From contig CAJQRI010000002.1 in the NCBI GenBank assembly GCA_905612265.1, positions 1 to 50,703 on the forward strand: 50,703 bases of DNA. The letters are read 5' to 3'. The DNA comes from an uncultured Nitrospinota bacterium (GTDB taxonomy: Bacteria > Nitrospinota > Nitrospinia > Nitrospinales > VA-1). Under the pieces are notes generated by a model that saw only the letters and a program-made list of their open reading frames with translations, was not told the DNA's origin and did not search any database. Below are positions 2,058 through 50,464 of this stretch, in pieces. Numbering within the stretch: position 1 is the stretch's first letter; each line of letters starts with the position of its first letter. The translations under genes and the position numbers were made by a program.

Positions 2058-2464
2058 TGGTTAAATTTCAATATAAAGAAAAAATACCGTTCAAACTCGA
2101 TTTGATACCGATGATCAATATTGTTTTTCTATTGTTGATCTTTTTTATGCTGACAGCCACCACCCCTACAAAAGAAGGCAGGGAAGTAGACCTACCCAAA
2201 GCCAGGACTGCTGAGAAAAGCAATAAACAGTATTTCACGGTGACAATTGACAAGGTGGGTGCTCTACAACTAGATGGAAACGAAGTCACTCTTAAGACAT
2301 TGCAAGGTCAACTAGAAAGTAAAATAAGAGGACAAAAAAATACAGTAATTTCCATTCATGCAGATAAGGTAATTGAGTTTGAGCTTTTTGGTCAGGTGAT
2401 CGAACTTGCTAAGCAGGCAGGTGCTGAAGACTTCATACTTGCAACAGAACAGGCAATGCCCTAA
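2057..2464 (+). CDS. exbD: Second ExbD/TolR paralogue (TM Asp replaced by Asn)
   Basis: LDLIPMINIVFLLLIFFM, VDLPKA, IHADK motifs; start overlaps the previous stop (TAATG). Confidence 0.9.
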   Translation: MVKFQYKEKIPFKLDLIPMINIVFLLLIFFMLTATTPTKEGREVDLPKARTAEKSNKQYFTVTIDKVGALQLDGNEVTLKTLQGQLESKIRGQKNTVISIHADKVIEFELFGQVIELAKQAGAEDFILATEQAMP

Positions 2465-2490
2465 ACCAATAATAGATATTGAGCAAAATC

Positions 2491-3438
2491 ATGATTCAGA
2501 ATAAATCTACATTTTATTCCCTGGCCGGTTCCCTGGCGGTTAATATGATGATTACTATGGGAGCAGGAAGTTTTCTTATAAGTATCAATAAGAGTCTTGC
2601 TACACAAAAAACCTATAAACTCGAATTCGTAAAAAAGAAGACCCCTCCCCTGATCAAAAAGAAGAAAATCAATAAAGAGATCGTTCGCCAGGAGGTTAAA
2701 GTAGCTAGTCTACAGCCCAAAGCCGTGCCAATTATACAACCTAAAGTGACCGTCCGACAAACTAGCTCTTCACTTCCTTCTGTCTCAATCCCAAATTATG
2801 CGCCAAGACAGATTCAAACACAGAAAGTTCCTGCAATGCGATCGGCAGTTATTCACACTGTCAGGTCAACAATGAGTAGACGGGTTACCGCCAACATTCC
2901 CACGGCCAGATCTTTTGCATCTGTAAACAAAAAAACGTCACAAAACAGCATGAAAAAAATGGCTATGGTTAATAGCGCAAAACATATTAAAACTCATAAA
3001 ATACCGACACTAGTCGCACGGTTATCTGCCAACACATCAACTTCCAAGAGTTCAAAGGGTCGTGTTACTCCTGTACTAACTGGAATGAAACATGCTTCCG
3101 TATCTTTCCCAGTTAACCCCAGAGGAATACCAAACATAGTCGACAGTGGTGCTTTAAATGGTTATCTTGGGCAAATACAACGCATTATTGAAGGTGCCAA
3201 GGAGTATCCCGAAGCCTCACGTCGGGCAGGTCGAGAAGGTAAGGTAAAAGTCCAGTTCACCATTTTCAGGAATGGTGATGTGCGCAACATAAAATTGCTC
3301 ACACGAACACCCTTCCCAAACCTGAATCAAGAGGCCATTGATGCAGTTGAAAGATCCGCCCCTTTTTCGGGGTTTCCTGATAGTATGATGGAAAAATCTG
3401 TAAAAGTTATTCTGCCATTCAGGTTTGAGTTGCGATAA
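2491..3438 (+). CDS. tonB: Energy transducer TonB
   Basis: N-terminal anchor (SLAGSLAVN), long linker, C-terminal TonB domain YPEASRRAGREGKVKVQFTI...LNQEAIDAV...LPFRF. Start ATG 2491 (alternative TTG 2479). Confidence 0.88.
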   Translation: MIQNKSTFYSLAGSLAVNMMITMGAGSFLISINKSLATQKTYKLEFVKKKTPPLIKKKKINKEIVRQEVKVASLQPKAVPIIQPKVTVRQTSSSLPSVSIPNYAPRQIQTQKVPAMRSAVIHTVRSTMSRRVTANIPTARSFASVNKKTSQNSMKKMAMVNSAKHIKTHKIPTLVARLSANTSTSKSSKGRVTPVLTGMKHASVSFPVNPRGIPNIVDSGALNGYLGQIQRIIEGAKEYPEASRRAGREGKVKVQFTIFRNGDVRNIKLLTRTPFPNLNQEAIDAVERSAPFSGFPDSMMEKSVKVILPFRFELR

Positions 3439-3526
3439 ATTTTAGTATATAAAGTAAATAATATTAAAATTCTTCTTTACTATAAGTAAGCGAAATAAAT
3501 TCGATGGTTTACGAGGTTTAGTCCCT

Positions 3527-4255
3527 ATGAGATTCAGAAAAGTATCAGTCATGACAATGCTGGTCTTCCTCGTCAGCGCTCTACCTTGTATGGCTGAAGT
3601 GAATGAAATAGATTCTAACTTTGACGGTAAAATAGATCAGTGGCAGTATGTCGACTCTCAAGGAAGGGTCGAAAAAATAGAACACGATGGCGATTTTGAC
3701 GGTAAGGTAGACCAGAGAGAATTCTTTAAAGGTGAAAAGATTCTTGACCGAGTTGAATTCGACCGTAACAAAGATGGAAAAATGGATCACCTGCAATACT
3801 ATGCAAATGGTGGTAAGCTTTCTAGAGTTGAAAAATCAAGCAAGTATAACAACACGTACGACTGGAAAGAGTTTTTCAATCACACCGAGAAGTTAACGCA
3901 TATAGCTATCGATGAAAATGGTGACGGAAAAGCTGACACCACTCAATTTTATGATTCATCAAATAAGTTAACGCGCATAGATACGGATTCAAATCAGAAT
4001 GGCAAGATTGATCGTTGGAGCCATTTTCGTGGTAACTCAGTGTTAGATCGCACAGCCTTTGATACCAATGGAGATGGAAAAGCAGACCAGTGGCAGTTTT
4101 ATCATGATGACCAAAGCTTAAAAAAAACAGATTACGATACTAACAGTGACGGAAAGGCTGATCGTTGGGAACATTTCAATTCAATTGGTAAACTTGTAAA
4201 AACTGAACTGGATCGTAATTATGATGGTAAAATTGACATGACTCAGAAAAAATAA
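3527..4255 (+). CDS. Exported protein of nine 25-aa repeats carrying DxN/DxDG(K)xD metal-binding-like loops
   Basis: Signal peptide ending ALPCMA; repeats DSNFDGKID, DGDFDGKVD, DRNKDGKMD, (SSKYNNTYD degenerate), DENGDGKAD, DSNQNGKID, DTNGDGKAD, DTNSDGKAD, DRNYDGKID. Confidence 0.8.
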   Translation: MRFRKVSVMTMLVFLVSALPCMAEVNEIDSNFDGKIDQWQYVDSQGRVEKIEHDGDFDGKVDQREFFKGEKILDRVEFDRNKDGKMDHLQYYANGGKLSRVEKSSKYNNTYDWKEFFNHTEKLTHIAIDENGDGKADTTQFYDSSNKLTRIDTDSNQNGKIDRWSHFRGNSVLDRTAFDTNGDGKADQWQFYHDDQSLKKTDYDTNSDGKADRWEHFNSIGKLVKTELDRNYDGKIDMTQKK

Positions 4256-4436
4256 TCAAATATTTTATTTATTTGTTTTTTTACTCAATTGAGAATGAAA
4301 TTCAAAGTCTTAATAAAGCTTTATAGTATTGAATTCATTATCGTAGTTTCACCTAAGACGTACCTCAATTAGTCCTATAAATTTATAATAGTTATTCCCA
4401 TCTTTTATATATAAATCAATAATTGACAATAAACTG

Positions 4437-41185: not shown

Positions 41186-42574
41186 GTGAAAACTGTTAAA
41201 TCCTATAAAAAATCCAGCCTGAGCTTCATAGCCTTCTGTCTAACTTTTTTGCTCCTCTGTCCTGCATCTTTTGCCGCTTCTAATAATGAAGCAAAGGCTC
41301 ACTACAAAAAAGCCCTAAAACTGAGTCAGCAAAGATTATGGGACCAAGCCGTAACCGAATTCATGAAAGCCGCTGAACTTGCTCCGCAAGACAGCCTCAT
41401 TCACGCGAACCTTGGCGTCGCCTTCAGCAAGACCGGAAAGCATAAACAAGCCTTGCTCTCTTTTGAAAAAGCATTGCGGTTGGGCTACGACTCTCCTGGT
41501 CTTCGCTATAACAGAGGCGTTTCCTTTGCCCGAGTCAAATTGCTCGATGAGGCCGTTCAGGAGTTGGAAAAAGCCCTGAGCATGGATAGTCGAATGGTAA
41601 AAGCCGAATATGACCTGGGGGTCTTATATAATTTGCAGGGAAAACGCGAAAAAGCTCTAAAACAAGTTGAGATGTTATTCAAAAGAAATAATAAGCTTTC
41701 AAAAAAACTGTTCGACCAAATTGATTCTGCTTATACCGTAGTTACCGTTGATAATGGAGGGACGTTAAAAGGCCAAGTAACGCTTTCCGGCCCGGTCCCC
41801 AGAGTCCGTTCTTTTCACCTGATCCACGCCCCAAATGTAGAGTTTTGCTCAAGGATATCCGATGGGAAAGGCCACCGGCTGCTGTTTGATTTCACAGTTT
41901 CAAAAAACCGGGGACTCAAAGATACAATCATCCGTCTGGTGAGGGTTGAAAAAGGAAAACCCTTTTCGACCAAAATGCAAACCTTTTACATCGACCGTTG
42001 CCGCGCTAACGATTACGTGATTGGCGCAATAAATGGAGAAAATATTATGGTGGAGAATACAGACCCTATCCAGCATGAGATCGCGACTTATGAAGTCCGC
42101 AATATTTATTCAGATCAAACCAGCAACCGACCGGTACCGCCTAAATCCAGTCAGGTCCGAAGTATCTTTGTACGTAAAGACGCAGATCATTACATCATAA
42201 AATGTAATCTACATCCTTTCCTTCAGACCACTGCCTATCTGGTACAAAACCCTTACTACACTGTGTCCGACGCAAAAGGTAATTTCAGCATCGAAAATAT
42301 TCCACCCGGAACTTATGATGTCATCGCCTGGCATCCCTATATTGCCGAACAAAAAGGTACAATCACCATTCCCGAAAAAGGGGACGCTAAATTAGACTTC
42401 GATTTTAACGGGAAAGACGAAAAGAGAAAGCTGTATCACGACGATATCGAAGGTTACCGCTTCAACACCTGGTTTGACAGCAAAGAAAAGTTCTATGGGG
42501 GAGAAAGAATTGATGACCCGGTTGAAGAACTTCAAGCCTTCTGTGACGATGACCACCTTTGCAGTAAACCCTAA
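41186..42574 (+). CDS. Exported TPR protein with carboxypeptidase-regulatory-like/cupredoxin-like C-terminal region
   Basis: Signal peptide ASFA; about four TPRs; GGTLKGQV, N.DP.QH, IKCNLHPF, NPYY.VSD..G.F.I.NIPPG.Y..AWHP. Confidence 0.8.
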   Translation: MKTVKSYKKSSLSFIAFCLTFLLLCPASFAASNNEAKAHYKKALKLSQQRLWDQAVTEFMKAAELAPQDSLIHANLGVAFSKTGKHKQALLSFEKALRLGYDSPGLRYNRGVSFARVKLLDEAVQELEKALSMDSRMVKAEYDLGVLYNLQGKREKALKQVEMLFKRNNKLSKKLFDQIDSAYTVVTVDNGGTLKGQVTLSGPVPRVRSFHLIHAPNVEFCSRISDGKGHRLLFDFTVSKNRGLKDTIIRLVRVEKGKPFSTKMQTFYIDRCRANDYVIGAINGENIMVENTDPIQHEIATYEVRNIYSDQTSNRPVPPKSSQVRSIFVRKDADHYIIKCNLHPFLQTTAYLVQNPYYTVSDAKGNFSIENIPPGTYDVIAWHPYIAEQKGTITIPEKGDAKLDFDFNGKDEKRKLYHDDIEGYRFNTWFDSKEKFYGGERIDDPVEELQAFCDDDHLCSKP

Positions 42575-45002: not shown

Positions 45003-45317
45003 TTAGTCTTTCCGGCTGCGAACAGCTTCCACTTCTTTTTCCATTTCTTCTTCCAGAGTTTTCTTATCAAATCGAAACTGTTCTTCAAGCTCTACTTTGT
45101 GAGCTTCAATTTCTTCAGGGTGGATTCGATCTGGTAGTTTGCGGATCTTATCTTGAGAGGTAATATCCCGATCGGCAATCTTTGCGGTATATTCTTTTCT
45201 AATTCCGGCAATTTCCTGCTTTTGCTTTTTAGTCAGCTTTTTTTGACTTTTAAGCTCTGGAGCCAGCTTATCAGAGCGTTCCAGACTCAATTCCCAAGCG
45301 CTTTTCAGTCCCGACAT
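45003..45317 (-). CDS. Hypothetical coiled-coil protein
   Basis: GAGGG RBS; N-terminus MSGLKSAWELSLER resembles a recurring bacterial KSAxElA/SxER family. Confidence 0.7.
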   Translation of the reverse strand: MSGLKSAWELSLERSDKLAPELKSQKKLTKKQKQEIAGIRKEYTAKIADRDITSQDKIRKLPDRIHPEEIEAHKVELEEQFRFDKKTLEEEMEKEVEAVRSRKD

Positions 45318-45350: not shown

Positions 45351-46106
45351 CTATAACAGAACGGGCTTGAAGTCGGAGAGTTTAATGACGTACCTTTGTA
45401 AAATATGGTCATCTTGCTTGAGAGTCTGATCAATGCGGTGAACCCACCAAATCCCCTTAGACTTTCTATAGGTATAGCGAGTGACTTCCAAATATTCTCC
45501 CTCATCCACCTCGAACCGGGTACGAGTTTCAGAGATAGCGGGTTTTCCCTCCAGCTTTAAATAGCTGAACTCTCCCTCTATATATTGTGGTGACCGCGAT
45601 TGTTTAAACCGTAATTTTCGGACGACCCACTCTTTGGCATCGACCAGAAGTTTGTATTCTTGATCAGAGGATACTTGTGTTAGACCTACAACAAACTTAT
45701 TTTTTTTCGTTGCATGAACCTTGCCGGCAAAGCTGGAGAATTTTTGCTGCAGTGTAAGAGGAATGATTGGCTCACTAAAAGGGCTGATATGCAGACTCAA
45801 TTCCTGAACCCGGTCTTCAGAAAAATGTTCCTGACCTTCAGCCAACTCAAAACGGCCCAGTTGGGAGCCCCCCTTCCATATAAAATTAAAGTCAGGATTA
45901 CGCAGGAATTTTCCGGAGCCGGAAACCACATCTAACTGCTCCCACTGAACTCGAACGGAAAGGCTTTTCAAGCCTTGCTTCTGAGGGTAATAGTAGTTTT
46001 GGTCTAACTTCAAAAGAACTGAGTCGAGGGATAGGCCCCAGGCAGAACTTATGAGAATTCCCACAAGTAATGGAGCAAAAACAAAAGAGATTTTTAATCG
46101 AGGCAT
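45351..46106 (-). CDS. Exported beta-rich protein of unknown function (possibly LolA-like fold)
   Basis: Signal peptide ending SSAWG from ATG 46106; strand-like alternating pattern; downstream of the TlpA gene. Confidence 0.65.
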   Translation of the reverse strand: MPRLKISFVFAPLLVGILISSAWGLSLDSVLLKLDQNYYYPQKQGLKSLSVRVQWEQLDVVSGSGKFLRNPDFNFIWKGGSQLGRFELAEGQEHFSEDRVQELSLHISPFSEPIIPLTLQQKFSSFAGKVHATKKNKFVVGLTQVSSDQEYKLLVDAKEWVVRKLRFKQSRSPQYIEGEFSYLKLEGKPAISETRTRFEVDEGEYLEVTRYTYRKSKGIWWVHRIDQTLKQDDHILQRYVIKLSDFKPVLL

Positions 46107-46122
46107 GTAATCAGTTTTGGAT

Positions 46123-46701
46123 CTAATCTTTGAGTATTGACACACGATCTACCAACGGTAAGTCATCATTGGAGTCATTGCTCTTCAGAGACAGAAACAA
46201 GTCCTGCGAATCTAAACTATCCCAGGATCTAGCCCCTGAAGCATAACCTCGGATTTTGCCCTCGCCATCAATCAGGTAGCTGGTAGGAATTCCCCTGACA
46301 TGATATTGCTTTCTAACTTTTTGGTTCTGATCCAGAAGCACTGGAAAGGTCAAATTGTTTTTCTCTACGTATTTTTGAATACGATCCTCGTTCCACCGAT
46401 CAATGGAAACAGCCAGCACTTCTACTCCATCTTTCCCAAGAGACGAGTACAGGTTTTGCATAGAAGTCATTTCTTCCCTACAAGCAGCACACCAAGTAGC
46501 CCAGAAGTTCAACAAAACAACTTTCCCGTTAAAATCAGAAAGCATGACATCTTGGCCTTTAAGGTTCTTCACCACAAAATCGGGTGCAGGCTGAGAAGTT
46601 TTTGGAGGCACCACTCCCACCTTGTTAAAAAAGTCATGCTCTGCATAGGCTTTTACTGGCAACCACACCAACATCATTATTAAAACCAGTATTGACTTCA
46701 T
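46123..46701 (-). CDS. TlpA/ResA-family periplasmic thiol-disulfide oxidoreductase
   Basis: APDF, GKVVLLNFWATWCAACREE, GIPTSYLID; GAGG RBS. Confidence 0.9.
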   Translation of the reverse strand: MKSILVLIMMLVWLPVKAYAEHDFFNKVGVVPPKTSQPAPDFVVKNLKGQDVMLSDFNGKVVLLNFWATWCAACREEMTSMQNLYSSLGKDGVEVLAVSIDRWNEDRIQKYVEKNNLTFPVLLDQNQKVRKQYHVRGIPTSYLIDGEGKIRGYASGARSWDSLDSQDLFLSLKSNDSNDDLPLVDRVSILKD

Positions 46702-46711
46702 GAGTAGTTCC

Positions 46712-46984
46712 TCAATTTGCGTTCCTGTGTAAGTAATCTCGAATCAGCTCTTTTTCCTGATTAGGGAATTTAATATTTTTTTGTTTCATAAAACCATCCA
46801 TCATCACCAAGAGGAAGTCCCATTGCTCCGGCGTATGCCTTGTTACACCTGGCAAACCGTGGCACTGGGTGCATCGTTCTTGATAGAGCCTTCCGCCGAG
46901 ACTCTCCGGTTCAGGAATCATTTGAGTCCCGGCACAAGATATTACGAATAAAGACACCAAAATCATTGGCAATACTTTATACAT
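46712..46984 (-). CDS. Monoheme cytochrome c lipoprotein
   Basis: Lipobox VISC; LYQERCTQCH; W...L..M distal Met region. Confidence 0.82.
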   Translation of the reverse strand: MYKVLPMILVSLFVISCAGTQMIPEPESLGGRLYQERCTQCHGLPGVTRHTPEQWDFLLVMMDGFMKQKNIKFPNQEKELIRDYLHRNAN

Positions 46985-46986
46985 TG

Positions 46987-48117
46987 CTAGAAGCCAAGTG
47001 ATTTAGGCGGACTGAACCCTTTATAACGCATGCTTTTCTTTGTAGGAACTTCAGCGTAATAAGTGAACTGAACCATCCAGTTATCCTGCAATTGTGGACC
47101 ATTCAAGTCCTGATGAATCGGCACGCTTGCCGTCAGTTCCATAACATGCAAAGGAAGAGGTTGGAACTGAACTCCCAAACCAAAATGCAACTTATGTCCG
47201 CCATAATTGTCCGGATCGAACAAGGGGCTAATAAGGTTATTAGCCGTGCTCAATGCATTATGACCGGCCCCCAAAACTCTTACATCATAAGCCTCATCGC
47301 TGAATTTTCCTTCATACCAACCATTCAACTGAGCATGAACAACCACCTTGTCATGAACCTGTTTCATAGCATAAAAATCATAACGGAGCTCTTGCGCCCG
47401 GCGATAGCCCTGTTCATTATCATAGATATGGCCTTCTAACTGGGTATTGAACCCCCACCAGAAAGGATCGCGTGAGCCTTGATAGGTTAAACCAATGATG
47501 GGGTCAACAGTGCCGCTCCCCAGTTGCATCTTAAATGGGAGAAGAGATCCATTGAACGTATCATTCGTGTGATTACTAAACTTCTTGTTGATCGATCCCG
47601 AAGGCAGGGACAAACCAAACAAAACTGATACCTGGTTTGTCGGAACCAGGTTATCATCAGCATAGGCACGATATTTAGCAAGTAAGGTAACATCTCCAAC
47701 ACCCCCCGATGTCATCGTGAAATCATTTCCATTATTTAAATTCATACGCATAGTATTTTCGATATAACTGGTCATTCCCATCACAGCAAAATCATCTGAG
47801 AAAGAATATGCGGCTCCAATCATAGTCATATACATCTGCATGTTAGTGGGAAGAGCAGGAAAATTGGTTCCGTTTGCAGAACCAATAAGATCGTCATTAC
47901 TAATCTCATCCGTACCGTCACGAAGGGGGCCCATCTCCATAATCATCTGACTAAATTTGAAACGGAACTCCTTGGGCTCAGGGATACCGCCGCCGAAAAT
48001 ATTCAGAGGCATATTTCCACCACAATGGGCACAGCAGAGCCCAATATAAGCTTGGGCTACAGATACCCAAGACAACATGATAAAGCTAAGAAAAAATACA
48101 ACTTTGTTTTTGAGCAT
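46987..48117 (-). CDS. Outer-membrane beta-barrel transporter with Cys/His/Met-rich N-terminal region (putative metal uptake)
   Basis: AGGAG RBS; signal peptide AQA; CCAHCGGNMP; MIMEM..RDGT, PTNMQMYMTM; barrel motifs G.GD, GLSLPSG, MQLGSGTVD, P..QDLNGPQL. Confidence 0.7.
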   Translation of the reverse strand: MLKNKVVFFLSFIMLSWVSVAQAYIGLCCAHCGGNMPLNIFGGGIPEPKEFRFKFSQMIMEMGPLRDGTDEISNDDLIGSANGTNFPALPTNMQMYMTMIGAAYSFSDDFAVMGMTSYIENTMRMNLNNGNDFTMTSGGVGDVTLLAKYRAYADDNLVPTNQVSVLFGLSLPSGSINKKFSNHTNDTFNGSLLPFKMQLGSGTVDPIIGLTYQGSRDPFWWGFNTQLEGHIYDNEQGYRRAQELRYDFYAMKQVHDKVVVHAQLNGWYEGKFSDEAYDVRVLGAGHNALSTANNLISPLFDPDNYGGHKLHFGLGVQFQPLPLHVMELTASVPIHQDLNGPQLQDNWMVQFTYYAEVPTKKSMRYKGFSPPKSLGF

Positions 48118-48242
48118 GAAACTCCTCTAGCTGAAATAAAGTTAAAATAGCAAATGGAGATAGATGGAGTGACAGACAAACAGTTTAATAAAGCTCACGC
48201 GAGCGCACTACCGCTTTTACTTAAGCCTGTCAGAAGTTCTCA
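48117..48242 (-). promoter_or_regulatory. SD-sequestering intercistronic RNA structure
   Basis: Minus strand UG(A)GAACUUCU (48242-48232) pairs with AGGAGUUUCA (48126-48117); inner stem UGACAGGC (48232-48225)/GUCUGUCA (48177-48170). Confidence 0.55.
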
Positions 48243-48668
48243 GATGAATTGTGGGGGATGATCGATAGATCGAGGGTAGTTCTGACTCAGGGTATCCGTA
48301 TGTGTTTTTATTCCCGAATAAAATTGTAACGGAAAGAAGCCATCTTGATTGATATCATTAAATAAAATTTTGGCTCTAGATGAAGCCGAAGAGTTAGCAG
48401 TTCCTGTTGAAGAACCACATTCAGATCTAATAACTCCCCTGGATTTTTTCTCATTCTGGTCTTTATGCGGACATGGTGTGTTTAATAAATGCTGGTGCAT
48501 TTTCAAAACACAATGTAACGGCCTAATTTTCTGGATTTCATCAAAGGGAGACACCACATCTGCATGGTGATGATGTAAAGACCCGGCCTGCGCTAACGAA
48601 GCGCTAAAAAAGACAACACAAAATATAAGTAAGTCACTTAAAATTCGGATTTTTGGTCGAAAATTCAT
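48240..48668 (-). CDS. Secreted His/Cys-rich upstream ORF with C-terminal HPP motif (candidate regulatory arrest peptide)
   Basis: Signal peptide SLAQA; HHHH, LHC..MHQH..CPH, EC; C-terminus YPRSIDHPPQFI. Confidence 0.7.
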   Translation of the reverse strand: MNFRPKIRILSDLLIFCVVFFSASLAQAGSLHHHHADVVSPFDEIQKIRPLHCVLKMHQHLLNTPCPHKDQNEKKSRGVIRSECGSSTGTANSSASSRAKILFNDINQDGFFPLQFYSGIKTHTDTLSQNYPRSIDHPPQFI

Positions 48669-48937
48669 TAGCGTATTACAGTTATCATTTTAAAACTAAG
48701 TCCATCGATTATGTTTATTTTAACAACTTTTGACTTAAAAATTCAAGTTTATTGCAACAAGAAAGCTCTTACCACACTATCTATAACTCAAATCCAGTTA
48801 AACCAACAACACTTAACACTTGATTTTAAAACAACACATCTAAGTAGATAGAATAAGAAACTTTTTATTCCACCCTGATCACAAATTCTCCATATGGTTT
48901 GTTTTATTTACGCCTGTTTGCTATTCTTACGATTAAT

Positions 48938-49966: not shown

Positions 49967-50464
49967 TTAAAGCATTTTTTTAATATAAGTCACCAATTGG
50001 TCAGCACCAACAGCCGGAACCCGGGCGTTCAAAACACCCTTTTGATCAATGATTAAAACGGTTGGCATTTCTCTTTGCGAATATGATTTATAAACCCCTT
50101 TCACAGGATCGAACAAATAAGGGAACTCTACTTTCTCCGGGAACTTACTGAGATACTGCGCAACCGCTTCCTTAGAATCACCATTCGTATTGATCCCCAA
50201 CACCACCACTTGATCCTCACTCATCTGCTTTCTAACTTTATTGAACTCCATGGCCTGATTCATACAAGGAACACATATATGGAACATACCGATCACAACC
50301 ACCTTCCCTTTAAAATCGGACAACGCCACTTGCTTATCATTCATGTTTTTCAAAGAAAATTCAGGAGCCTGTTCTCCTGGAGAAAGTGCCCCTGCAAAAG
50401 CGGGGACCACACCTAAAATCATAATAATTAATGAAAGAAATATTTTTTGCATTACACGCTCCAT
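49967..50464 (-). CDS. Exported redoxin (TlpA/AhpC-TSA family)
   Basis: Signal peptide PAFA; APEFSL, LSDFKGKVVV, CVPC, PT.LIIDQKG. Confidence 0.87.
   Translation of the reverse strand: MERVMQKIFLSLIIMILGVVPAFAGALSPGEQAPEFSLKNMNDKQVALSDFKGKVVVIGMFHICVPCMNQAMEFNKVRKQMSEDQVVVLGINTNGDSKEAVAQYLSKFPEKVEFPYLFDPVKGVYKSYSQREMPTVLIIDQKGVLNARVPAVGADQLVTYIKKML

Follow-up and report, generated by a model that had tools for sequence, protein, structure and literature searches.

A stretch of 50,703 nucleotides from an uncultured Nitrospinota bacterium (assembly GCA_905612265.1, contig CAJQRI010000002.1; this whole stretch is called the window below) is DNA of a marine nitrite oxidiser and carries on its minus strand a unit of five genes which encode, in order, a leader-like open reading frame (ORF), an outer-membrane barrel, a cytochrome c lipoprotein, a TlpA-like thioredoxin and a protein of probable LolA fold referred to as P4. 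We propose that the five genes form an operon of the cell envelope for handling a thiophilic metal at the outer membrane, with copper the most likely metal and uptake the most likely direction, a reading to which we give about an even chance. A first-pass annotation of this DNA had described four exported proteins spaced 2, 10 and 16 bp apart. These four were recovered as minus-strand ORFs with exactly those gaps across barrel, cytochrome, TlpA and P4, and all four products have hydrophobic signal-like starts (barrel VAQA/YIG, cytochrome lipobox VISC, TlpA AYA/EH, P4 AWG/LS), with signal-like segments, lipobox and exported status judged by eye; the fifth gene, the leader ORF at the head of the unit, had been missed.

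The barrel and its N-terminal cysteine tip

The barrel matches the Pfam family PF13557 (Phenol_MetA_deg) with 36.6 bits against a gathering cut-off of 22 (E 6.4e-9), and its homologues carry precomputed PF13557 annotations. A phmmer search of the barrel against PDB sequences gave no match at E<=10, and no match to PF05275 (CopB) was obtained at E<=0.1. Structure prediction, which the first-pass annotation had recommended, returned a confident 12-strand model with AlphaFold2 (AF2; predicted local distance difference test, pLDDT, 91; predicted template modelling score, pTM, 0.86). This model superimposes on the COG4313 channel Pput2725 (4rl8_C) with a VIA Z of 24.8 and a root-mean-square deviation of 2.5 Å over 254 residues (Foldseek E 6.8e-12) and on FapF with a VIA Z of 23.4, while PcoB (7pge), at a VIA Z of 12.0, falls far behind the COG4313 match. 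The barrel is thus a 12-strand channel of the COG4313 type and not a TonB-dependent transporter, which explains why, as had been remarked earlier, no TonB box can be recognised.

The alignments of the fold begin at model residue 39 with Pput2725 (its residue 2) and at model residue 24 with FapF (its residue 88), so that the N-terminal segment is matched to lumen-inserted N-termini in both; the pLDDT of residues 21-30 is only 57. As described for Pput2725, some 14 N-terminal residues sit in the lumen on the periplasmic side (PMC4493636). Because the window protein aligns to Pput2725 from residue 39 onward, it is plausible that its cysteine-bearing residues 24-38 are an extension of a lumen-inserted N-terminal segment of this type.

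The motifs quoted by the first-pass annotation are present in the barrel, namely YIGLCCAHCGGNMP at residues 24-37, MIMEM at 58-62 and MQMYMTM at 93-99. In a comparison of 20 Nitrospinota loci from different genera and families, the tip pattern [YF][IVL]GLCC[ATS]HCGGNMP[LM]N was the same in all 20 orthologues, which are spread over the phylum, and its core C-x-x-C-G-x-N-M-P was invariant both in these and in 9/9 more distant Cys-type relatives. Among 101 aligned family members, 24-86% identical to the window barrel, Met occupies positions 60, 62, 93, 97, 99, 115, 123 and 197 in 93-100% of sequences, and at thirteen positions half or more of the members, Cys- and His-type alike, have Met. The conserved Met cluster on strands 1-3 and within a PYxMQLGSGT motif; judged by hydropathy parity, those of strands 1 and 3 are predicted to face the lumen while strand 2 is ambiguous. 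Variable Cys and Met motifs would have counted against a metal-handling role, and the motifs were instead invariant or nearly so. On these alignments, the N-terminal and Met motifs are far from chance. Haem attachment at the CCAHC of the tip was also considered and is rejected, as no CxxCH occurs anywhere in the barrel and either H, K or N can occupy the site between the cysteines.

The window barrel belongs to a very large family, with 1,509 relatives at E<=0.001 in a search of cluster representatives (about 1,500 clusters at 50% identity). Most members of the subfamily have a His/Met motif at the N-terminus where the window barrel has Cys-x-x-Cys...Met. In these His-type relatives (about 30% identity), H-x-P-x-G-V-M-G-D-H-x-H takes the place of the Cys tip, often after His-rich tails; they are found in Gemmatimonadota, Bacteroidota, Cyanobacteria, Pseudomonadota and Planctomycetota. 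Cys-type barrels in metagenome contigs come in two forms, Cx-H-C and Cx-K-C, the latter (K-type) found in marine metagenome contigs.

The conserved unit and its redox pair

The first-pass annotation had named operon conservation across genomes as a check on its proposal, and the genes are indeed co-conserved. Barrel, cytochrome and TlpA genes are adjacent and co-oriented in all 20 Nitrospinota loci, P4 is present in 18 of them (crcB-like genes stand in its place in L040), and a leader-type ORF occurs in 18/18 loci with upstream sequence. The genes that flank the unit in the window recur rarely (ArgS in 8/20 loci, uracil-DNA glycosylase in 7/20), and flanks differ between families. Over 101 Nitrospinota genomes, a barrel match was obtained in 73 and a near-full-length orthologue with at least 50% identity in 57. 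The metagenome loci of the Cx-H-C form have the cytochrome in 21/21 cases, TlpA in 12/12, P4 in 9/10 and the leader in 16/19. Those of the Cx-K-C form have the cytochrome in 28/29 and TlpA in 16/20, with P4 in 0/17; the Nitrospinota leader profile matched 0/29 K-type loci, and Pro-Pro-tailed Cys ORFs lie upstream of the K-type barrels in L205, L208, L221 and L227. Separately, we note that the P4 position of L048 (genome G082, 2257-4431) holds a second ORF of leader type, 177 aa long and with the tail RPPQFFS, behind which come genes that resemble ExbB and ExbD.

P4 has no match in Pfam or NCBIfam. Its AF2 model (pLDDT 90) resembles the LolA superfamily, with its open beta-barrel and helical lid, in Foldseek (3buu, E 6.4e-7, TM 0.40-0.45), with many LolA, LolB and RseB rows at E 1e-4 to 1e-3, and its automatic name in the Atlas is 'outer membrane lipoprotein-sorting protein'. 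Its conserved residues include no Cys, His or Met. These folds bring in an alternative in which no metal is involved: the COG4313 channel would import a small hydrophobic or thiol-reactive molecule (for example a lipid, a quinone or a compound of organic sulfur), P4 would be its carrier in the periplasm, and the cytochrome-thioredoxin pair would process the cargo or protect the channel. TcpY, SphA and Pput2725, the COG4313 channels treated in PMC4493636, are linked there to hydrophobic substrates, and both the LolA fold of P4 and its lack of conserved metal ligands suit such a role. However, P4 is not part of the core, being absent from 2 of the 20 Nitrospinota loci and from all 17 K-type loci that keep barrel, cytochrome and TlpA, and without a metal it is difficult to account for Cys and His/Met motifs replacing each other at a single site, for thirteen conserved Met positions and for Cys/His leaders with a Pro-Pro tail. 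We regard a non-metal system as quite unlikely.

Among solved structures, the cytochrome profile picks out quinohaemoprotein amine dehydrogenase (1jju) through its haem domain (E 3.5e-5). This similarity, together with a CTQCH motif at residues 38-42, identifies a mono-haem class I-like cytochrome c of the QHNDH/DHC module type; its neighbours in the Atlas are DHC/Cytochrom_C clusters, and the Pfam model Cytochrome_CBB3 stays at 17.8 bits, under its cut-off of 27. The thioredoxin exceeds the Pfam cut-offs of both AhpC-TSA (117 bits, E 6e-34) and Redoxin (94 bits, E 1e-26). Because it scores under the NCBIfam cut-offs of the ResA subfamily (134.2 versus 170 bits) and of the TlpA equivalog (104.5 versus 230), we call it TlpA/ResA-like; by these scores it is not an equivalog.

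The first-pass annotation had tied TlpA to the state of the cysteines in the barrel, and the distribution of the gene bears this out. TlpA follows the Cys-type barrels in 20/20 Nitrospinota, 12/12 Cx-H-C and 16/20 Cx-K-C loci, whereas within 3 kb around 80 His-type barrels a TlpA of this kind was never seen and a cytochrome of this kind was seen once. K-type loci encode a dihaem cytochrome, which L213 has as a fusion with TlpA; this dihaem cytochrome-TlpA fusion is represented by 11 full-length clusters, with sources naming Candidatus Scalindua. Because the pair tracks the Cys-type barrels and is fused in Scalindua-type genomes, cytochrome and TlpA are best seen as one module that would serve the oxidisable Cys tip. 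Cysteine ligands oxidise, so Cys-type barrels would presumably need a TlpA-like reductase. As to the cytochrome, a role as redox partner of the thioredoxin would fit the TlpA fusion at least as well as an action on the metal.

The fusion protein itself (L213:2350-3294, proteins P0288-P0298) is a lipoprotein with two haem c modules (PF09626) joined to a TlpA-type thioredoxin; the sources of its clusters name Planctomycetes besides Candidatus Scalindua, and its gene lies directly after K-type Cys-tip barrels. A second Cys-tipped PF13557 barrel, unrelated to that of the window, was observed in L162 (genome G024) and L167 (G021). It is 330-337 aa long with a mature end ACGGxNC and few Met, and has a leader paralogue ahead and a TlpA-like gene directly behind, with no cytochrome and no LolA-like gene; both genomes had no match to the window barrel. 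With the ACGGxNC barrel, the association of a Cys tip and TlpA is seen in a second lineage.

A small lipoprotein cytochrome c that is encoded next to an outer-membrane barrel and translationally coupled to it over 2 nt could also be read as a split porin-cytochrome conduit that, like Cyc2, serves electron passage or Fe(II) oxidation at the outer membrane. We reject this reading as highly improbable. The barrel has no CxxCH, and the residue between the cysteines of its C-C-A-H-C motif varies; a 12-strand barrel with an inserted N-terminus, as modelled, would leave little room for a haem domain; the sole fusion family found joins the cytochrome to TlpA and not to a barrel. Longer proteins with the cytochrome module were likewise not found among the five candidates scored, a weak negative.

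The leader ORF, the metal and the direction of transport

The product of the leader ORF has three invariant cysteines in the contexts HC.L (C53), CPH (C66) and CG (C84). Although its homologues share only 22-65% identity, the distance from the CG cysteine to the Pro-Pro pair is 53-55 residues in 13/13 of them. The Pro-Pro pair stands 3 residues ahead of the stop in 9 of the 13 and 3-8 residues ahead in the rest, and the residues before it are D-H, D-P, E-H or K and in none of the 13 sequences R-A. Spacers of 94-169 nt separate leader and barrel in 11 adjacent orthologous loci. A consensus search for promoter-like sites in the leader-barrel spacer found none, which is weak evidence. An RNA switch in the 122-nt spacer of the window was considered and is not supported by its predicted folding (z 0.04, with 94/200 shuffles as stable).

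This layout recalls the CruR/CutF leaders, described as small exported proteins that carry a Cys motif and, at a fixed distance from it, an arrest motif 3 residues from the stop; a long spacer follows, and they head copper operons with genes for TonB-dependent transporters, PepSY_TM, Sco, PCuAC and AhpC_TSA proteins (PMC9426467, PMC9973294). By its sequence features the leader ORF is built like these leaders, yet it is not a member of their family; the likeness is one of build only, because the DUF2946, profile-profile, CXXC and RAPP tests all fail. The leader has no match in Pfam, and PF11162 (DUF2946) matched 0/12 aligned sequences even at E<=10. Homology to the leaders of His-type loci or to DUF2946 is not supported, since hhalign gave a probability of 1% with only the Pro-Pro tail aligned.

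Paralogues of the leader are present in 25/26 Nitrospinota genomes, where they head TonB-dependent receptors (6 loci scanned), PF13557 barrels (2), a BBP2 porin (1) and an OMP-like barrel with an FMN-binding protein. This gene order clearly links the leader family to uptake at the outer membrane. The nearest NCBIfam models of the receptors behind leader paralogues are of siderophore or haem types, and no copper-type NCBIfam assignment was found for these receptors.

The paralogues ahead of a TonB-dependent receptor in L163-L166, L168 and L175 (genomes G023, G089, G054, G032, G010 and G043) have tails of LDPPP plus 2-3 residues. Their operons also encode a BNR-repeat propeller protein, some of them together with ExbB-ExbD-ExbD-TonB, and L176 shows the same gene sizes. 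An exported protein of 269-326 aa with a conserved IPHGCNG segment and no match in Pfam or NCBIfam sits behind a leader paralogue in L169 (1164-1973, G010) and near the operon in L045 (7887-8867).

At the level of the wider barrel family, the same sort of leader recurs. In 50/75 His-type loci, a small ORF that lies upstream on the same strand has at least 2 Cys, and Pro-Pro within its last 12 residues; of the other ORFs of similar size in these loci, 10/423 have such Cys and Pro-Pro. Several of these His-type leaders end in RAPP, and one (L119) matches DUF2946 (E 7e-5). Copper-linked genes were found as same-strand neighbours in 9 of the 59 His-type loci scanned: Sco1 with PCuAC in L068, L075 and L081, PepSY_TM in L078, L095, L101, L104 and L111, and a multicopper oxidase in L115. 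None of the same 59 loci showed a downstream gene specific for Zn, Ni, Co or Fe, and CDF exporters lie upstream in two His-type loci. In Bacteroidota, nine His-type loci (L089, L095, L101, L104, L105, L108, L113, L115 and L123) also share a conserved ORF of 140-157 aa without a Pfam match, on the same strand after the barrel or its PepSY_TM neighbour.

The metal that this machinery serves might be one other than copper, for example zinc, nickel, cobalt, cadmium or ferrous iron. The iron demand of nitrite oxidisers is high, four His in a row (HHHH) occur in the window leader, paralogues of this leader head siderophore-like receptors, and CDF genes occur near two His-type loci. CutF-like leaders, as surveyed in PMC9426467 and PMC9973294, are moreover not all copper-specific, as His-only clusters adjoin HupE/UreJ. 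Counting against this alternative, the 59 His-type loci gave no downstream gene specific for Zn, Ni, Co or Fe versus nine loci with copper-linked neighbours. In addition, Cu(I) and Ag(I) sites (CusABF, Ctr1, CopC, OprC) typically combine Met ladders with CxxC or His/Met, which is not typical of Zn, Ni, Co or Fe sites. We consider a metal other than copper unlikely.

If the metal is copper, or silver or mercury, the unit could instead serve defence, with the barrel releasing or sequestering periplasmic Cu(I) as PcoB/CopB do, the cytochrome oxidising Cu(I) and the leader inducing the operon at rising metal levels, in the way that CutF acts on CutO. The chance of this seems to us small. PcoB is described as a 12-strand barrel with a periplasm-facing His/Met-rich N-terminus that serves copper efflux (PMC12509749), and our model aligns to it, but at a Z of 12.0 this match is much more distant than that to COG4313 (24.8), and PF05275 is not matched at E<=0.1. 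Leaders of the CutF type activate a detoxifying oxidase (PMC9426467, PMC9973294), a multicopper oxidase gene lies downstream in one His-type locus and CDF exporter genes lie upstream in two; on the other hand, most of the copper-linked neighbours serve assembly or uptake (Sco1 with PCuAC in 3 loci, PepSY_TM in 5), and the leader paralogues head uptake receptors with ExbBD-TonB. Furthermore, the unit is near-universal in Nitrospinota of the open ocean, with a near-full-length barrel orthologue in 57/101 genomes, and dissolved copper in the open ocean is nanomolar or lower.

Returning to copper uptake, we envisage that Cu(I) would run along the Met-lined wall of the barrel and be received by the CxxC...M tip, carried on the N-terminal segment that would fill the periplasmic mouth. 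Cytochrome and TlpA would act as a redox module that feeds or drains electrons and so sets the thiol/disulfide state of the tip; alternatively, the cytochrome may reduce Cu(II), similar to the proposal for CrpH in Bordetella. The leader ORF would sense the metal during its own export, its Pro-Pro tail tuning expression of the genes behind. P4, with its LolA fold and no metal ligands, would be an accessory specific to Nitrospinota that may cap the barrel or hold the lipoprotein. The redox-assisted copper import suggested by the first-pass annotation thus stands in part: a soft metal is indicated by the leader, by the 50/75 His-type leaders and by the 9/59 loci with copper-linked neighbours, and the link to TlpA is borne out by comparison; a cysteine plug is plausible from the fold, and copper, import and the role of the cytochrome are inferred.

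Several points weigh against this reading. Hydrophobic molecules are the supposed cargo of those COG4313 channels that have been characterised, and the fold of P4 is that of lipid carriers. The orientation of the strand-2 Met ladder is ambiguous by hydropathy parity. The leader has no DUF2946 match and three separate Cys in place of CXXC or CxxxC; its tail is D-H-P-P or D-P-P-P and not RAPP, of which both Arg and Ala were essential for arrest in the peptides tested in PMC12992588. The fold of the spacer is no more stable than that of shuffles. Because the leader paralogues head receptors of siderophore or haem type, the metal sensed by the leader could be other than copper, and only 9/59 His-type loci have copper-linked neighbours. 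The compared loci are kin, so that counts overstate independent support, and the independent lineages that link Cys tips with TlpA number only about two to three. Finally, 'Ca. Nitrohelix vancouverensis' has the barrel (P0107) but is reported to be without a canonical haem-copper oxidase (PMC8026999), hence supplying such oxidases cannot be the general purpose of the unit.

A wider proposal, improbable as a whole in our estimate, would be that these barrels are widespread and so far undescribed TonB-independent copper channels of the outer membrane. Their Cys branch, in Nitrospinota and Scalindua, would be driven or gated by periplasmic redox: a haem-thioredoxin relay would cycle the CxxC, the thiolate would capture Cu(I) from the Met ladder and the disulfide would release it to periplasmic acceptors, making transport directional without TonB or ATP, at a level set by a new arginine-free family of Pro-Pro leaders that also controls TonB-dependent receptors with ExbBD-TonB. 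If the reading as copper uptake is right, a very large family of small barrels would constitute a second, TonB-independent copper route. The Cys-tipped form occurs in Nitrospinota, and the close K-type form, whose cytochrome-TlpA fusion has sources that name Candidatus Scalindua, in marine metagenome contigs. With two key nitrogen-cycle groups of oxygen-poor seawater concerned, the unit would also bear on trace-metal limits of marine nitrite oxidation and anammox. Testable cases are offered by the cytochrome-thioredoxin redox pair, the LolA-fold partner of an outer-membrane channel and a leader family that departs from the RAPP rule.

For copper at the outer membrane, the published accounts considered describe TonB-dependent importers alone for uptake (PMC12914433) and PcoB for efflux (PMC12509749). 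According to the former account (January 2026), every one of the few outer-membrane transporters known to be specific for copper depends on TonB, and bacterial copper acquisition is poorly understood. We found no description of a PF13557-type copper channel in the literature searched, although the figures and supplements on CruR/CutF that list neighbour families might name PF13557, and no link to copper in the literature on Phenol_MetA_deg. Four features are new here: the cytochrome partner with its TlpA fusion, an accessory protein of LolA fold, a leader family that lacks the arginine, and the way in which barrels of Cys type differ from those of His type.

Features of the locus and comparison with known systems

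Table 1. Positions of the genes and sites of the five-gene unit within the window.
Feature	Positions	Strand	Remarks
Sigma-70-like promoter match, TTGAAT-18-TAAAAT with TG	48717..48746	-	Consensus match only; upstream of the leader ORF
Leader-like ORF, 142 aa	48240..48668	-	Signal-like N-terminus; HHHH 32-35; invariant C53, C66, C84 and P138-P139
Pro-Pro codons of the leader tail, DHPP-QFI-stop	48252..48257	-	Pro-Pro invariant in 12/12 aligned sequences
Leader-barrel spacer, 122 nt	48118..48239	-	Shine-Dalgarno-like AGAGGAG ahead of the barrel ATG
Outer-membrane 12-strand barrel, PF13557/COG4313 type, 376 aa	46987..48117	-	Pfam, AF2 and fold comparison
Mature N-terminal Cys tip of the barrel, YIGLCCAHCGGNMP, residues 24-37	48007..48048	-	C-x-x-C-G-x-N-M-P invariant in orthologues
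Met ladders of strands 1-3: M58/60/62, M93/95/97/99, M113/115/123/125	47743..47946	-	Alignment and hydropathy parity
Mono-haem cytochrome c lipoprotein, 90 aa	46712..46984	-	Lipobox Cys17; CTQCH 38-42; invariant M62 and M66; R49-H50
Periplasmic TlpA/ResA-like thioredoxin, 192 aa	46123..46701	-	Active site WCAAC, 70-74
P4, exported LolA-fold protein, 251 aa	45351..46106	-	YYYPQ motif 38-42; AF2 and Foldseek

The length of P4 in Table 1 counts from the ATG used in the first-pass annotation; an alternative GTG at 46145 would give 264 aa. Past P4, after 33 nt and before argS, lies an ORF of 104 aa (45003-45317, minus strand) that is rich in Lys and Glu and has no signal peptide. From its gene neighbourhood this ORF probably stands outside the unit, because it is kept only where argS also adjoins (8/20 loci). 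Upstream of the leader by 1.3 kb, a second exported TlpA/ResA-like thioredoxin of 165 aa with active site CVPC is encoded at 49967-50464 (minus strand), and a 66%-identical copy of it occurs near the operon in L035, adjoining a paralogue of a tetratricopeptide-repeat (TPR) protein. The window has such a protein at 41186-42574 (plus strand), exported and with N-terminal TPR repeats and a C-terminal CarboxypepD_reg-like domain. Its best NCBIfam similarity is to MamA, well under the cut-off; it is kept beside an SPOR-like gene in one family (f1), and its paralogue in L035 is 34% identical.

Of the systems known to us from published accounts, the cruR-crtA-crpH operon of Bordetella pertussis has the same plan: a small exported Cys leader with a Pro-Pro arrest-type tail 3 residues before the stop and a long spacer (PMC9426467), behind which stand an outer-membrane importer and a haem protein (PMC9426467, PMC12914433), the latter, CrpH, being proposed to reduce copper (PMC13038864). 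Like the window unit, operons headed by cruR also include AhpC_TSA (TlpA-type) genes (PMC9426467). The parts themselves differ. The outer-membrane protein of the window is a 12-strand COG4313 barrel whereas that of Bordetella is a 22-strand TonB-dependent transporter, and for haem protein the window unit has a cytochrome c lipoprotein of 90 aa, the Bordetella operon a PepSY_TM membrane protein. In contrast to CruR as described in PMC9426467, the window leader lacks DUF2946, CXXC and the Arg-Ala before Pro-Pro, and its distance from Cys to Pro-Pro is 53-55 residues versus 45.

With Pput2725 (PDB 4RL8), TcpY and SphA the window barrel has in common the Pfam family, the 12-strand barrel and an N-terminal segment before strand 1 (PMC4493636). 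Unlike the window barrel, the conserved-residue list of that paper includes no Met ladder and no Cys/His motif at the N-terminus, and compared with Pput2725 the window barrel has about 15 extra N-terminal residues that bear the CxxC. PcoB/CopB (7PGE) likewise is a 12-strand barrel with a periplasm-facing N-terminal region of metal ligands and no need for TonB; it belongs to another family, however, and is described with a long disordered His/Met tail, a multicopper oxidase partner and a role in efflux (PMC12509749).

The thioredoxin of the unit may be set beside the TlpA of Bradyrhizobium. The latter reportedly reduces the copper chaperone ScoI and CoxB, and is thus said to be a TlpA-type thioredoxin that keeps the Cys pair of a copper protein reduced before metallation. 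Here the presumed client would differ, being the tip of the barrel, and TlpA is paired with a c-type cytochrome, to which it is fused in Scalindua-type genomes.

The binding site of OprC consists of Cys, His and Met. Similar to the role that we propose for the window barrel, OprC is an outer-membrane importer proposed for non-chelated Cu(I) with sulfur ligands, and is classed as a TonB-dependent transporter for ionic copper (PMC12914433). OprC, however, has 22 strands and draws on TonB energy, whereas the window barrel has neither a plug domain nor a TonB box.

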